A stretch of DNA of 64,000 nucleotides from a virus: IMG/VR virus record IMGVR_UViG_3300032738_000111, positions 14,241 to 78,240 of that record; one strand, given 5' to 3'. Below, piece after piece: positions 3,397 through 58,782 of this stretch. Numbering within the stretch: the first letter of the stretch is position 1; each line of letters starts with the position of its first letter. The translations under genes were made by a program, and so were the position numbers. The notes beneath the pieces were generated by a model. The model had not been told where the DNA came from. It saw nothing but the letters and a program-made list of their open reading frames with translations, and did not search any database.

Positions 3397-4749
3397 TCAG
3401 ATTACGTCAAACCAAAGCTCAGTGAACTCGCCCTGTGCCAACTGTGCGAATGCGCCTGACATGGCATCCACCTGGTCGTCATGCGCGCCGAATGGAAATA
3501 GCGCCACCTCGTCAAGGAAGTCACTTATCCACGGCCCGCTCACCAGCTTGACATTGCCATGCCACGCCTGGCTAGACACGGGATTGGCACGGACCTCTTT
3601 GCTACCAGTGCTGCGGACGCCGCAAAAGTTATACCCGTCGAGGATACGGCGGGTGTAGTGGTCTATCGTATTGACGCCACTACTGCCAGGCTCTTGCTCC
3701 ATCGCAATTTCTACATCAACCCCATCGCGCTCAGCGGTCTGGCGGATAAGCGCTTCGACTTTGCCCGGCGCTGCTTGAGTACGTTTTACATCACAGATGT
3801 AGTAAGTCGCAGCATCGGTACGGTCTAGGTGACGCCCCATGAGTACGCCAGCAGTATAGTCAGGGTCCTTGCCGGGCTTGGGCTCCGTTGCCGCCAAGTC
3901 CCAGAAGCGTACTCGACGCATTTCCACAGGCGCGACATCCACTGGCGCAAACCAATCGCGCTGAAACTTGTTTCCTGTCGCCTCAATATCCCAGTCGCCC
4001 TTCTTCAACTGCTCGCGGGTAACAGGGTCAAGTTCGTCCAGCGCCTTGTTATACTCCTCAACATCAAGGTGGGGGTTGTCCTCAAGGCAGGCTGGTATGA
4101 ATACGCGCTCTTGGCTACGCCCCTCGACAATGAACCGTTGTTTTACCCATTGATGTCCTTGGTCGCCTGGGTTGCTTGCTGAGCGCATACGCAACGGTAC
4201 TGCTGCGCCCTCAAGTCTCCGCAGGCGAGAGAATAGGTAGCGATATTGGCTCTCACTAAACTGCGTCAATTCGTCGAAAGCAATATACTGGAAGGCCGCT
4301 GACTGATACCGAAACTTGTCCTTCTCGGCATCCAAGTAAGCAAAGCTCAAAGTAGCCCCCGAGGGGAATATCCAGGTCTTAGCCTTGTCGCTCCAGCGTG
4401 CGTCGGTTGGCCCCAGCCACTCCTGCGCCCTGTCCATCAGGGCCTCAGGCAGTATCAGGTCAGTATAGGTGCGCCGAAAGATGATGGCGGCATAGCTTGG
4501 AATATCAACGTACTGCAATGCGGCCATGAGTAAGGCGTCAGACTTGCCACCGCCTGCCGCGCCGCCGTAGAAAGCCTCGCGGCAAGTTAGCCAGAGGAAT
4601 GCTTGCTGCTTAGGTGTCGGGGTGTGCGGGCAGTACTCACTCAGCCGCGGCGTCAGGTGCGCCTTCAGCTCCGGCCTCGACTGCACCAGATTCGACCAGT
4701 ATTCGGAGGACTTCTCCAAGGTGTCCACTGCTTGTGTCGATGTTGCCAC
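3397..4749 (-). CDS. terL: Terminase large subunit
   Basis: Walker A GGAAGGGKS, Walker B IAFDE, coupling motif ASNPG, nuclease WDLA and HDDQVDA. Confidence 0.95.
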   Translation of the reverse strand: MATSTQAVDTLEKSSEYWSNLVQSRPELKAHLTPRLSEYCPHTPTPKQQAFLWLTCREAFYGGAAGGGKSDALLMAALQYVDIPSYAAIIFRRTYTDLILPEALMDRAQEWLGPTDARWSDKAKTWIFPSGATLSFAYLDAEKDKFRYQSAAFQYIAFDELTQFSESQYRYLFSRLRRLEGAAVPLRMRSASNPGDQGHQWVKQRFIVEGRSQERVFIPACLEDNPHLDVEEYNKALDELDPVTREQLKKGDWDIEATGNKFQRDWFAPVDVAPVEMRRVRFWDLAATEPKPGKDPDYTAGVLMGRHLDRTDAATYYICDVKRTQAAPGKVEALIRQTAERDGVDVEIAMEQEPGSSGVNTIDHYTRRILDGYNFCGVRSTGSKEVRANPVSSQAWHGNVKLVSGPWISDFLDEVALFPFGAHDDQVDAMSGAFAQLAQGEFTELWFDVI

Positions 4750-5214: not shown

Positions 5215-5757
5215 TCAGTCGCGCCACTCATATTCGCACTGAGGGCATTTGTGGAGGCCTGAAACCTGTTCGCCTGCGGTTGCTTGTGTATCCGCGTCGT
5301 CTGATGGGAACGGCCCCGGTGTGGCTGCCTGTTCAAGCAGCGCGTTTAGCTCGGCCTCGTCGAAGCTGACTGGCAGGCACTCATCCTCCTGCAACTTCAC
5401 AAGTAGACCCGCAAGGACAGCATCATCATCCTCTGCGAAGTTGCTCAGGTTGTTATCATCAATCAGATACGCGGCGGCCTCAATATCCGAGCAATCCCAC
5501 ACGTCGCAGCGAACCGTCTCCCAACCTATGCGTTGCGCAGACTGGACTACCGCGTGGTGTGCGATAATCCGCATGGTGCTGGCCTGCACGACCACTGCGG
5601 AGCGTTGCCCATAGCGCAGGAGACTTTCGTCAAGCCGGAGGAGTTGGGATTCGGGATGATTGCGATAGTTCTGCGGCCACGGTTTCAAGTCTGCTATCGC
5701 TACATCGCGAATCTCACCCCGTGGCTTATGCTTGTCAAAGGTCAGTTTCTTCGCCAT
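5215..5757 (-). CDS. ParB/Srx N-terminal domain protein with C-terminal CPxC ribbon
   Basis: DLKPWPQNYRNH...SLLRYG..., AYLIDDN, CPQCEYEW; typical gene upstream of terminase. Confidence 0.8.
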   Translation of the reverse strand: MAKKLTFDKHKPRGEIRDVAIADLKPWPQNYRNHPESQLLRLDESLLRYGQRSAVVVQASTMRIIAHHAVVQSAQRIGWETVRCDVWDCSDIEAAAYLIDDNNLSNFAEDDDAVLAGLLVKLQEDECLPVSFDEAELNALLEQAATPGPFPSDDADTQATAGEQVSGLHKCPQCEYEWRD

Positions 5758-5968
5758 TGAACATTCTCTCGTTGCCAATCAAGCTGTCAGCCCGGCGGGC
5801 GACCCCATCAAGCTCCCCGGAACCTCTTACGGGTGTCCTCCGTGTCTAGGCTGGTGTTGTTCGTTCGCAGGAGCACCGGGCTGAGTTTTGTTCGTTATCA
5901 TTGTCCGCGTTTTTCCCACCGGACAGTCATCGCCGCTCACCGTCAAGGACTATTACGGGTGGATAGTC

Positions 5969-6049
5969 GGGTGCGTTGGGCAGGGCTTTTACCTTGCACC
6001 CTATGCGGTGCTACTTCACCGTTTCCTAGCCCTGAAAGGTACGGTGAGG
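5969..6049 (-). ncRNA. Candidate structured RNA: two stem-loops with complementary loops
   Basis: Stems CCUCACCGU/ACGGUGAAG and GGGUGC/GCACCC; loop segments CAGGGCU and AGCCCUG are exact complements. Confidence 0.4.
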
Positions 6050-6051
6050 AA

Positions 6052-6122
6052 TGGTCGCCGCTAATGGGCAATGATACTGCCGGAGCAGCCATCGCCACGC
6101 GGGTGAACCCGATTCGGCGGCG
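6052..6122 (-). ncRNA. tRNA-sized, CCA-terminated tRNA-like RNA with non-canonical arms
   Basis: 5' CGCCGC pairs with 3' GCGGCG, followed by ACCA; lies 18 nt downstream of the canonical tRNA. Confidence 0.4.
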
Positions 6123-6140
6123 GCAATATGTTGCTTTGCA

Positions 6141-6215
6141 TGGTGAGGGCAATTGGATTTGAACCAATGACCGGCCGCTTATGAGGCGGCTGCTCTTCCG
6201 CTAAGCTATGCCCTC
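6141..6215 (-). tRNA. tRNA with CAU anticodon (Ile2-like, or elongator Met)
   Basis: Full cloverleaf GAGGGCA-UAGCUUAGCGGAAGAGC-A-GCCGC-CUCAUAA-GCGGC-CGGUC-AUUGG-UUCAAAU-CCAAU-UGCCCUC-ACCA. Position 1 pairs with 72, so it is not an initiator tRNA. Confidence 0.93.
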
Positions 6216-6226
6216 GTATGGATGAT

Positions 6227-6280
6227 TGGTCTGGGCGGTATGTTCCTAAGACATACGCTCATCTATTGAGCTACGCCCAG
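6227..6280 (-). ncRNA. T-armless tRNA-Leu(UAG)-like RNA
   Basis: 7-bp acceptor stem CUGGGCG/CGCCCAG plus ACCA, U8-A9, D arm GCUC/GAGC, anticodon arm UAUGU-CUUAGGA-ACAUA; no variable or T arm. Confidence 0.65.
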
Positions 6281-6439
6281 ACCATGAATGCGCAGAAGGC
6301 CCGGCGCAAGCCAGACCCTCGCTTTCCCTTAGCCGAAGCACCGGGGTAGTTATTGCACGTCTGCGTTCGCCGCCCTGGATTGGTTACCTGGACGGGGAAC
6401 GATCTCCTCCTACGCATGGCAGGGGAGGCAATGGAAATG

Positions 6440-6490
6440 ATTCTCCTCAAAACACATAGTTTTCTAGTGTGTTGTGAGGAGAATTGTCAA
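6440..6490 (-). promoter_or_regulatory. Candidate promoter (TTGACA) embedded in a long inverted repeat, upstream of the tRNA and packaging genes
   Basis: TTGACA at 6490-6485 with a weak -10 (TAGAAA) 18 bp downstream; inverted repeat ATTCTCCTCA...TGAGGAGAAT (6440-6484). Confidence 0.5.
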
Positions 6491-6567: not shown

Positions 6568-6837
6568 CTAATTCTCTGCAAGTAACGGCTGGTGGCGTTG
6601 GCGGGCCTCTCGGCGTAACCAATCCCGCATTTCGTTCCGGGCGATAACTCGGCAAAGAGCAAGCGGCTTCCGCGCCCGTGCTATCTGTTCACTCCTAGCA
6701 AACACTTTCACCCGCGCCTCCTGGAGCAAGTCCTCCAAGTCCTCGGGCTGATACTCTTCGGCAATAGCGCGGCAGGCCTCTTCGGCGATGACTTTCTCAT
6801 ATTCCACTGGCAATTCCTTCCGCGCTTTCTCCTTCAT
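6568..6837 (-). CDS. Stand-alone ECF-type sigma factor region 2 domain
   Basis: DLEDLLQEARVKVF...CRVIARNEMRDWLRR matches the ECF sigma2 pattern DAEDxxQE...IARNxxxDxxR. Confidence 0.7.
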   Translation of the reverse strand: MKEKARKELPVEYEKVIAEEACRAIAEEYQPEDLEDLLQEARVKVFARSEQIARARKPLALCRVIARNEMRDWLRREARQRHQPLLAEN

Positions 6838-7258
6838 CCGAAAGGATGACGAGCGCAGAGGCCATCTTTATGCACGCGCGGGATAAAATTCTGGAAATGG
6901 TTGACTGGTTCACCCGCAACATTCTCCCCACCTGCTCCTGGATAACCTTCTCACGATAGCACAGAAGGATAACTATCTGCCACTTTGTGGGTAGTGCGCC
7001 AATGGCTTTGTCGAGGTCAGCTTTGATACAAACCAATTCTACATAGGCCGCCTCTCCGCTTACGCCACCGCTAGATAAACCGCTATCATCAGATACGTCG
7101 AGCGTGCAGCCTAGATAACATGCCTCGGCGAGTTCTGAGTACCGATGCAACCAACCACGCACCCTTCGCTCCGCACAAGCCTGAGGGTCAAACAGGTCTC
7201 TCATCGGAAACGGGCGGCTCCAGTAGTCGTCGGAAGTTTCCACGGTGTCTCCCGTCAC
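6797..7258 (-). CDS. Sigma70 region 4 domain protein
   Basis: DLDKAIGALPTKWQIVILLCY..QEQVGRMLRVNQSTISRILSRA matches the sigma4 HTH. Confidence 0.85.
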   Translation of the reverse strand: MTGDTVETSDDYWSRPFPMRDLFDPQACAERRVRGWLHRYSELAEACYLGCTLDVSDDSGLSSGGVSGEAAYVELVCIKADLDKAIGALPTKWQIVILLCYREKVIQEQVGRMLRVNQSTISRILSRACIKMASALVILSDEGESAEGIASGI

Positions 7259-13635: not shown

Positions 13636-15084
13636 CTAACCTTCTTCTGCTCCCGAATCGCCTGTATCGGACACCTCGCCGCCGGACTCGCTACTTGCGC
13701 TGGCCTGCGCCACCCGGCGCTTCTCGTACTCGGCAGCGGCATCCACTACGCACTTGTTCGCCGCTTGCCAGCTCTTTGCCCTCGCGCATTGGACCTCTCC
13801 GTCCGGCGTCGTGTAGCTCCACCGCCACCGCCAAGGCCCCTCTTGTACTTCCCACACGTTGCTACGCCCGCCGCTTGCGTGGTGGCCTGAGTAGCATATC
13901 GGCATGGCGGAGTCTGCTTGAGAAGGTTCTGGGCAAGCGTTGCAGGCATCTGCGGATGGATGCTCGTGTACGTCTTTCTCCCTGAGTTCCTCGAAGGCCT
14001 CGTTGACTACCCTGCTTCTCATCGCCCGCCAATCAGTCTCTATGCGCTTGCAGACTGCTGTGAGTGCCGCGCCTGCGATGTCGTGAACCCTCACCACTAT
14101 GTGAAATCTCTCCTCCAACCCCGCAATCTCATCTGTGGCCGCGTTGAGTTCCTGCTGGACGGCGTTGCGCTCTTTCTCCCACTCTTTCTGCCGTTCCCGT
14201 CGCATCTCATCCAAGACCCGATAACTCTCGCTATAGGCTTGCTTCACAGCACCCAAGCGACCCTCCAGTTCCGCCACGCGCTCTTGCAGCTTCGATACCT
14301 GAGGGTCAGCGATATGGAATGTGCCGCCGCTCCAGTAGTACGGGCGCTTTGTTGCATCCGCGCAGTAGGCGAATACGTCGCAAAGGTCGCCCTGAAACTT
14401 CGGCTTCTCGGACTCATCCTCCGCCGGGCACGGGACGCCAGTCTCGGCGCAGGCGGACTGGACATTAGCAGCAGACCCCTTGGGATAGTGCATTACGGAC
14501 TCGCCATTCAAGTCCTTACCATGCACCTCCTGGCATTCGCCGCAGCCGCGATAAATGTTCGTGACCTCAGTGTAATATACGAGAGAACCATCGCTGCAAC
14601 GCGGAAATGCCACCACCGGCGGCTCGGCTCCCAGACAATTCCACTCAGCACCGAAGGCCTTTTCGTCGCGGGCGAGGCTGGTGACAACGGCAGGGGATTC
14701 GGCGACTGACTGATGTATGCCCGTTCGCCCATCGTGGTCGCCTCCGACTAACGAGCTCTCTGGTATTGTGCCATGAGAGCATAGCTCGCTAATGGATGTG
14801 ATACGAGTAAAGTGAAACTCGGAGTTGTCGAAAACACAATGCAGCGTCACCGTCAGCTCTTGCGCGGCAAGCTCCTCGGCCTCGGCTATTAGCGCATCTA
14901 TCTGCTTGGTGGATTCGGCGACAGCGGAGCTGGTTATGTCACCGTGCCCACATACCTGCACAATAGTGTGACCGACCTGACGACTATATGAGGCAATGTT
15001 GGCAACAGGGATACGCCAACTCCAGCCGCCAGTCTCACAGTGCAACACAATCTCGGCCTGCCCTGCTTTATCCTGATTCATCAT
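13636..15084 (-). CDS. Modular repeat protein with coiled coil, paralogue of 24074-25780
   Basis: Repeated VTLH...V.ES..V modules and a heptad-rich region. Confidence 0.7.
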   Translation of the reverse strand: MMNQDKAGQAEIVLHCETGGWSWRIPVANIASYSRQVGHTIVQVCGHGDITSSAVAESTKQIDALIAEAEELAAQELTVTLHCVFDNSEFHFTRITSISELCSHGTIPESSLVGGDHDGRTGIHQSVAESPAVVTSLARDEKAFGAEWNCLGAEPPVVAFPRCSDGSLVYYTEVTNIYRGCGECQEVHGKDLNGESVMHYPKGSAANVQSACAETGVPCPAEDESEKPKFQGDLCDVFAYCADATKRPYYWSGGTFHIADPQVSKLQERVAELEGRLGAVKQAYSESYRVLDEMRRERQKEWEKERNAVQQELNAATDEIAGLEERFHIVVRVHDIAGAALTAVCKRIETDWRAMRSRVVNEAFEELREKDVHEHPSADACNACPEPSQADSAMPICYSGHHASGGRSNVWEVQEGPWRWRWSYTTPDGEVQCARAKSWQAANKCVVDAAAEYEKRRVAQASASSESGGEVSDTGDSGAEEG

Positions 15085-58272: not shown

Positions 58273-58782
58273 CTACGCATCTAGGCCCAACAGGTATGCA
58301 GTAACGAATTCGCCGAGTTTACCGTCGAGCACCGCCTGCGCATCCACAACCTCAACACTGGTACGGTGGTCCTTGACCATTGTGTACGGATGTAATACGT
58401 ATGACCGTATCGGCGGATTGCTCTTGGGTACGTGTGGAATATCGCAGCAGTCGTCGATATCCGGCATTACACTAACTGCGGCAAAGCTCGTGTGTCGGCG
58501 CTTCGAAGCATCGAATGGCGATATCCTCACTAGGCGATGGACACCCGCCTCGCCATTGAGTTGACCATAGGCACCAAGACCACGGACTGTAGCTACAACC
58601 AGGCGAATGCCAGGACCATCACCGCGAATTGCAGAACCCACTGTGAACTCATAGCCATTGATTTCGGCAAAATGCCGATACATCCGCAGCAGTATTGCCG
58701 CCCAAGCGCACGCCTCGATGTTACCGCCCCCCGCATTCACCGACAGAACTGCTGACTTTTCATCCAGCACTAGTTTATACAT
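58273..58782 (-). CDS. Mini release factor 2 homologue (domains 2 and 4 only; SPF present, GGQ domain and domain 1 absent)
   Basis: AGGG..EA.AWA..LLRMY, AYG.L.GEAGVHRLVRISPFD..RRHTSFA, joined directly to IRSYVLHPY.MVKDHRT...VLDG.L..F. Confidence 0.9.
   Translation of the reverse strand: MYKLVLDEKSAVLSVNAGGGNIEACAWAAILLRMYRHFAEINGYEFTVGSAIRGDGPGIRLVVATVRGLGAYGQLNGEAGVHRLVRISPFDASKRRHTSFAAVSVMPDIDDCCDIPHVPKSNPPIRSYVLHPYTMVKDHRTSVEVVDAQAVLDGKLGEFVTAYLLGLDA

Follow-up and report, generated by a model that had tools for sequence, protein, structure and literature searches.

A 54-nt tRNA-Leu(UAG)-like element lacking the variable region and T arm beside an intact tRNA gene in a freshwater phage

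Eleven nucleotides upstream of an intact tRNA gene in a freshwater phage lies an element that resembles a tRNA-Leu(UAG) from which the T arm is missing, raising the question of whether it is a working tRNA, an RNA with another task or the remains of a broken gene. The element falls within the window analysed here, a 64,000-nt stretch (positions 14,241 to 78,240) of IMG/VR record IMGVR_UViG_3300032738_000111. This virus record is complete at 78,240 bp and has direct repeats at its termini. The reading that we favour, with about even confidence, is that the element is an internally deleted phage-lineage tRNA-Leu(UAG) gene, carried together with a working tRNA(CAU). Table 1 lists the parts of the element and the features surrounding it.

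Table 1. Positions in the window of the element, its parts and its neighbours
Feature	Position	Strand	Remarks
5' leader UGGU	6281..6284	-	complementary to 3' ACCA; closing stem lengthened to 11 bp
Acceptor stem, 5' strand CUGGGCG	6274..6280	-	
U8-A9 and D arm GCUC-AAUAGAU-GAGC	6257..6273	-	4-bp stem, 7-nt loop
G26 and anticodon arm UAUGU-CUUAGGA-ACAUA	6239..6256	-	17-nt arm at 6255..6239; anticodon UAG at 6248..6246
Single linker C (C6238)	6238	-	replaces variable region and T arm; 21 model positions absent
Acceptor 3' strand CGCCCAG, discriminator A, encoded CCA	6227..6237	-	
11-nt spacer AUCAUCCAUAC, element to intact tRNA(CAU)	6216..6226	-	
Intact tRNA, anticodon CAU, encoded CCA	6141..6215	-	69.4 bits; elongator Met or Ile2 (ARAGORN: tRNA-Met)
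Variable cargo slot: ~155-nt leader with two hairpins, element, tRNA(CAU)	6050..6440	-	between conserved flanks
TTGACA followed by 16-bp inverted repeat (15/16 complementary, 11-nt spacer)	6441..6490	-	upstream edge of slot
ParB-like gene	5215..5778	-	downstream synteny anchor
Sigma region-4 ORF, then sigma region-2 ORF	6568..7258	-	upstream synteny anchor

The element occupies 54 nt of the minus strand (6280..6227), in which acceptor strand, U8-A9, D arm, G26, anticodon arm, linker, second acceptor strand, discriminator and CCA follow one another in the order of an ordinary tRNA. All 16 of its 16 stem pairs are Watson-Crick, with no G-U among them, and the acceptor stem (7/7 pairs) carries A73 and CCA. 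The anticodon arm has a 5-bp stem and a 7-nt loop, C32-U33-UAG-G37-A38, in which the canonical U33 and R37 are present. In the D arm the stem, U8 and A14 are kept, while the GG pair of the loop is absent and G18 and A21 are replaced; this GG is kept by 30/30 intact phage tRNAs compared with the element. The variable region and the GTTCRA-loop T arm are absent, and in an alignment to the Rfam tRNA model (RF00005), which covers model positions 1-71, 21 contiguous variable-region and T-arm positions are represented by 1 nt.

Folding was consistent with this anatomy. Together with its leader, the element was predicted to reach -31.6 kcal/mol, compared with -13.3 +/- 2.8 for 200 dinucleotide shuffles (RNAfold; z -6.61), none of which was as stable. 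The predicted structure is a three-way junction in which UGGU pairs with ACCA to complete the 11-bp closing stem (chance of this leader pairing, ~0.4-2%), and in which G26 is able to pair with the linker C6238. The same fold was predicted within a 231-nt context. A strict T-armless descriptor (all pairs Watson-Crick or G-U, U33, R37, linker of 0-3 nt) matched the element alone when the 78,240-bp genome and other phage loci totalling 749 kb were scanned on both strands; a relaxed structural descriptor produced matches that were mostly false, lying inside normal tRNAs, and was discarded. The T-armless, tRNA-like architecture is genuine and beyond chance. The original prediction had described a 54-nt minus-strand element with acceptor stem, U8-A9, D stem, anticodon arm, discriminator A and CCA but no variable or T arm, and sequence and fold agree with it, as the RNAfold structure does with its proposal that the UGGU leader pairs with the ACCA end. 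It had also joined the anticodon stem directly to the acceptor 3' strand, which needs correction by one nucleotide, C6238, lying between the two.

Default ARAGORN and Rfam at its gathering score, applied to the whole window, called the neighbouring tRNA(CAU) alone, just as had been foreseen in the claim that tRNA scanners would probably miss the element. Its score against the Rfam model was 27.0 bits by cmscan on a slice and 33.1 bits (E 1.3e-6) in a whole-genome search, with the 29-bit gathering cut-off falling in between. Metazoan-mitochondrial mode of ARAGORN reported a 54-nt 'TV-loop mtRNA-Leu(tag)', although the 6-nt loop of this call needs a shifted acceptor stem of 6 pairs that includes 2 mismatches.

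The origin of the element was approached through its 17-nt anticodon arm (TATGT-CTTAGGA-ACATA in the DNA), of which 33 copies are present in IMG/VR viral contigs. Intact tRNA-Leu(tag) genes identified by ARAGORN account for 30 of them, and the element is the only shortened copy among the 31 occurrences of tRNA type. The 30 genes represent 17 distinct sequences, 13 of class II with a long variable arm and four that are class-I-like (75-77 nt). Identity extends to 19 nt, including C25-G26, in 27 of the IMG/VR loci; 185,579 species genomes of bacteria and archaea yielded the 19-mer twice, once within a tRNA. Because the 17-19-mer is present in 30 phage tRNAs against one cellular tRNA, sequence identity marks the hairpin of the element as a real tRNA-Leu(UAG) anticodon arm, from a lineage almost confined to phages. 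The match to 30 intact phage genes upholds the tRNA-Leu(UAG)-like identity first proposed for the element.

The intact phage tRNA-Leu(UAG) genes (IMG/VR loci L105-L137) resemble the element in further respects: G26 is common to most of them, several have A73 and an encoded CCA, and the four class-I-like genes are in this respect like the element's D arm. In contrast, all 30 possess a variable region, a GTTCRA-loop T arm and the GG of the D loop, none of which the element has. Neither the acceptor arm nor the D arm of the element has a counterpart among the 30 genes, and no relative of this phage was found among their sources.

The arm itself shows an unusual distribution, being common to 17 distinct tRNA-Leu genes with otherwise divergent bodies (e.g. 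L112:12134-12150 and L109:3108-3124) that are carried by phages ranging from small ones to jumbo phages of >400 kb, many of them unrelated. Several of these phages have no tRNA besides this tRNA-Leu, or only one other. Since many unrelated phages carry the arm and it is nearly absent from cellular genomes, its distribution suggests strong phage-specific selection on this anticodon arm.

Around the element, all genes lie on the minus strand in the order sigma region 4, sigma region 2, a 790-nt non-coding stretch that holds the element and tRNA(CAU), the ParB-like gene, the large terminase gene (TerL) and portal. The phage is lytic. No tyrosine or serine recombinase/integrase, no GTP_EFTU domain (EF-Tu) and no CCA-adding enzyme was found in its genome. 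The TerL gene (window 3397-4749, minus strand) has thousands of relatives at 60-72% identity, and because these relatives have no further gene in common with the phage, the terminase module is mosaic. The loci retrieved through TerL had no tRNA nearby. Portal relatives were short fragments without the region. Usable synteny was available only via metagenome relatives of the ParB-like gene, of which three (L093, L095 and L097) have the arrangement sigma4-sigma2-gap-ParB; the closest ParB relatives (79-83% identity) carry different genes directly upstream of ParB.

In these loci the flanks of the gap are conserved, comprising the sequence after sigma region 2 up to a TTGACA/TGACT motif on one side and a hairpin-like motif upstream of ParB on the other. 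The contents differ. L093 and L097 contain a 236-aa ORF and an RNA with a RAGATH-18 score of 32.5 bits (L093:2745-2788; L097:1489-1532), L095 contains a 139-aa ORF and a DUF3800-VII RNA (61 bits, above cut-off; L095:2747-2841) to which the RNA of the other two is related, and no tRNA was found in the sigma2-ParB gap of any of the three. Since the flanks are conserved and the gap content varies among relatives, the element and tRNA(CAU) are, by this comparison of sequences, cargo of a hypervariable slot.

Several minor features of the region were recorded. The slot RNAs of L093, L095 and L097 each follow an ORF without a Pfam match. In the same three loci, as at 6568-7258 (minus strand) in the window, the sigma factor is divided between two overlapping ORFs that stand in reverse order, region 4 before region 2. 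The TTGACA and inverted repeat bordering the slot upstream may be a promoter/operator, or else a weak terminator where the sigma transcript ends. A motif that precedes the ParB-like gene at ~5990-6044 (minus strand), AGGGCUAGGAARCGGUGA ... AGCCCUGCCC, is common to L092, L093 and L097 and may represent either a late promoter element or a hairpin in the RNA; the unrelated locus L104 has a lone 19-nt match to it, probably due to chance.

Homologs of the element were then sought in larger collections. A blastn search with the 58-mer against 50,697 phage records returned only a weak tRNA-Pro match. Exact and degenerate patterns of the D arm, and of the D arm with its loop, gave 0 matches in viral contigs and 0 in metagenome contigs, and the same type of pattern gave a single chance match, inside a coding region, in genome contigs. 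Patterns for tRNA(CAU) gave 0 matches. A covariance model built on the element recovered only the element itself over 335 kb of related loci, and in the other phage loci examined no tRNA had a comparable module ahead of it. The phage is represented by near-identical assemblies on ~9-10 contigs in JGI/IMG and Logan; with these outside the comparison, the element is, by sequence matching, a singleton among the phage, viral-contig, metagenome and genome collections searched. Conserved arm-less homologs, for which a search had been proposed in the original prediction, were thus absent from the relatives and collections searched. The same prediction had named, as an outcome that would speak against it, a unique allele standing where relatives carry an intact tRNA-Leu; the allele is indeed unique, but the slot of the relatives holds no tRNA of any kind rather than an intact tRNA-Leu.

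These observations are consistent with the internally deleted gene that we favour. Here, a phage-lineage tRNA-Leu(UAG) gene would have been the parent, and one internal deletion of ~21 nt would have removed its variable region and T arm. The remnant would lie in the hypervariable accessory slot, would probably still be co-transcribed with the intact tRNA(CAU) downstream, and would presumably have lost its decoding function. A single deletion of this kind would explain the loss of 21 contiguous positions, the singleton status, the variable-slot setting and the absence of a supporting factor. Intact parents with the same type of arm are common in phages, with the element as the sole truncated copy, and the tRNA model aligns all but the 21 contiguous positions. 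The replacement of G18 and A21 in the D loop fits a relaxed constraint once the T loop had gone. Leu(UAG) and CAU are also plausible as an original pair of cargo tRNAs, because the phage uses both CUA and AUA codons (~9 and ~14 per 1000, respectively, by a crude ORF count).

The state of the stems bears on the age of such a deletion. The 16/16 Watson-Crick pairs, the agreement of the anticodon arm with the family consensus and the pairing of leader and ACCA end argue against an old neutral relic, which in a compact phage genome should decay or vanish; the intact stems would therefore imply either that the deletion was recent or that the structure has been selected. Taken with the changed D loop, they fit recent deletion or else selection on structure. 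No direct repeats or microhomology were found that would account for the deletion, which counts against the favoured reading, as does the lack of an intact tRNA with the acceptor or D arm of the element. Fold-back template switching, considered as a common source of the deletion and the paired ends, was rejected since the junction has no priming microhomology. Compared with tRNA pseudogenes in phage tRNA clusters, the element has the tRNA ancestry, the loss of an essential part, the adjoining intact tRNA and the absence from relatives, and it differs in that its stems are undecayed, its deletion is exactly arm-bounded and its CCA end is paired with the leader. As a relic, the element would offer a tidy example of phage tRNA cargo breaking and a reminder that arm-deleted copies escape standard tRNA scanners.

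What else such an RNA could do is constrained by its predicted shape. With a linker of 1 nt, the anticodon stem would either stack on the acceptor stem, giving a continuous 12-13 bp, or kink sharply against it, and the D hairpin would project as a side branch; because of this geometry there would be no L shape and no D/T elbow. Bacterial EF-Tu and LeuRS, RelA on the ribosome and T-box leaders rely on the acceptor/T stack or on the elbow, and the ribosome itself relies on the L shape. The specificity domain of RNase P likewise relies on the stack or the elbow (PMC4919913). Because EF-Tu, RNase P, LeuRS, RelA and T-box leaders need these features, decoding by the element is, on this model, very unlikely. 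The arm that remains is of a kind that some proteins recognise, as enzymes that read the anticodon stem-loop alone include TrmD and several anticodon nucleases, and readers of this type could bind the element if it adopts the modelled fold.

In an alternative that we regard as unlikely, the element acts in trans as a stable mimic of a tRNA and takes no part in decoding. With its Leu(UAG) arm and ACCA end it would bind or titrate a reader of the anticodon stem-loop, or be modified by one, candidate partners being a host anticodon nuclease, TrmD-type modifiers or a phage enzyme. Perfect stems and paired ends would suit such an RNA, and the D-loop positions that serve T-loop contact alone have changed, with the stems unaltered. 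The arm that has been kept is almost phage-only (30 IMG/VR tRNAs, compared with one in the 185,579 species genomes), and the accessory slot is of the type that holds host-interaction cargo. The same genome also contains other pared-down translation parts. One is a 370-aa GluRS/GluQRS-like protein (genome 699..1811, minus strand; locus L087) that consists of the class I Glu/Gln tRNA-synthetase catalytic domain only and scores far under the GluRS and GluQRS family cut-offs; the other is a mini-RF2, a 169-aa fragment with the PCRF domain only (window 58273-58782, minus strand). However, no genomic linkage connects the element to the GluRS-like gene (~19 kb away) or to the mini-RF2 (~52 kb away), and the parallel that the original prediction drew with the domain-deleted RF2 is thematic only. 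The element is moreover a singleton, without the conservation that would support a function in trans.

Phage tRNAs do counter tRNA-cleaving defences (PMC10264068, PMC11464382, PMC11555353), examples being the T5 tRNA-Lys against PARIS (PMC11464382), tRNA-Tyr against retron effectors (PMC11555353) and variants of the anticodon loop (PMC10264068). These tRNAs resemble the element as phage-borne cargo in which the relevant part is the anticodon arm, but they are complete tRNAs that replace cleaved host species, whereas the element is incomplete. The known counter-measures are therefore full functional replacements, not decoys, and a literature search found no tRNA mimic used as phage counter-defence and, in the papers found, no decoy action by an incomplete tRNA. 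To act as a decoy for a catalytic nuclease, the element would need to prevail over a very large tRNA pool, and decoding would not be restored. The decoy function suggested at the outset for anticodon nucleases, synthetases or uncharged-tRNA sensors gained no positive support; arm-less homologs are absent from the relatives and collections searched, and LeuRS, RelA and T-box sensors need the D/T elbow that the element does not have. Another comparison is offered by RNAs C and D of phage T4, which are tRNA-derived small RNAs located within or beside phage tRNA genes that have a CCA end and do not decode. They differ from the element in the half retained, which is the acceptor/T-arm half in their case and the D and anticodon half in the element, and in being conserved among relatives, while the element is a singleton. 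On balance it is doubtful that a ~54-nt T-armless RNA works here outside decoding, whether as a tight mimic for a host reader of tRNA-Leu arms, such as a defence nuclease, or as a substrate of the phage's GluRS-like core. If it did, T-armless tRNA mimics would for the first time be known beyond organelles. A functional element would mean that incomplete tRNAs serve phages as RNA tools, and the decoy idea for tRNA-targeting defences would become directly testable with the 54-nt RNA.

A role in cis, which we consider improbable, would make the element a module of the tRNA(CAU) transcript, its three-way junction serving to guide processing or to block exonucleases. The 12-13-bp stack of acceptor and anticodon stems would have the length of an acceptor/T minihelix and could set the ends or the stability of the leader RNA and of the downstream tRNA. 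The position of the element fits this proposal, being 11 nt upstream of tRNA(CAU), on the same strand and within the 790-nt non-coding stretch, and the leader/ACCA pairing closes the structure. Coaxial stacking would be favoured by the continuity of the 3' strand of the anticodon stem with that of the acceptor stem and by the possible G26-C6238 pair. Moreover, RNase P measures a stack of this kind (PMC4919913). Set against these points, the element is not conserved, the phage loci examined have no like module upstream of their tRNAs, and the benefit of such a module is undefined. Pairing between leader and RCCA end is expected to hinder RNase P, and no U-tract follows the element, so that it is no intrinsic terminator.

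It is far less credible that the element acts at the level of DNA, with its perfect 11-bp inverted repeat (TGGTCTGGGCG/CGCCCAGACCA), which lies near packaging genes, forming a protein-binding, packaging or attachment site and its likeness to a tRNA being resemblance only. The interior is tRNA-specific, with U8, a D arm and an anticodon arm that matches real tRNAs base for base; the genome contains no second exact copy of the repeat arms and no integrase, and an attP core would comprise the 3' portion of a tRNA, T arm included. An attP or integration remnant was ruled out on the ground that the genome has no integrase. Two further readings of the locus were rejected. Small ORFs overlapping the element were absent from the protein collection, which disposed of a coding reading, and a plus-strand reading as a D-armless tRNA with anticodon CUA had C33, a 4-bp T-like stem 2 nt off the acceptor and no match to the tRNA model.

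The last alternative, a working T-armless tRNA-Leu that decodes CUA/CUN in the manner of nematode mitochondrial tRNAs, we hold to be the most improbable: the canonical anticodon loop (C32, U33, G37), A73 with CCA and the TV-loop tRNA-Leu call of ARAGORN would suit it, but the linker has 1 nt where a TV-replacement loop has 6-12, the ARAGORN fit breaks the acceptor stem, the phage encodes no specialised EF-Tu although T-armless tRNAs need a dedicated EF-Tu1 (PMC1636415), and the literature search found no bacterial or phage precedent, and no armless tRNA in a phage. The nematode mitochondrial T-armless tRNAs, which have a 6-12-nt replacement loop and depend on the dedicated EF-Tu1 (PMC1636415, PMC4013460), are comparable to the element in size (~54 nt) and in having acceptor, D and anticodon arms and no T arm. 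They differ in their bent shape as well as in loop and elongation factor, and they belong to an organelle, whereas the element, with its 1-nt linker, belongs to a phage genome without EF-Tu.

Two other departures from standard tRNA architecture were observed among the phage loci compared. Bacterial tRNA-Leu is of class II. Several phage tRNAs with a UAG anticodon are class-I-like, at 74-77 nt with a short variable region (L111:300-375, L112, L120, L125, and L101 at ~4309-4382, in genome G043). Finally, a miniature tmRNA-like gene (L084:153-234) starts the tRNA cluster of G043, a 101-kb phage with 27 tRNAs; it consists of the tRNA-like domain only, with a 308-nt body reduced to 15 nt, and scores 54.6 bits on RF00023, above cut-off.
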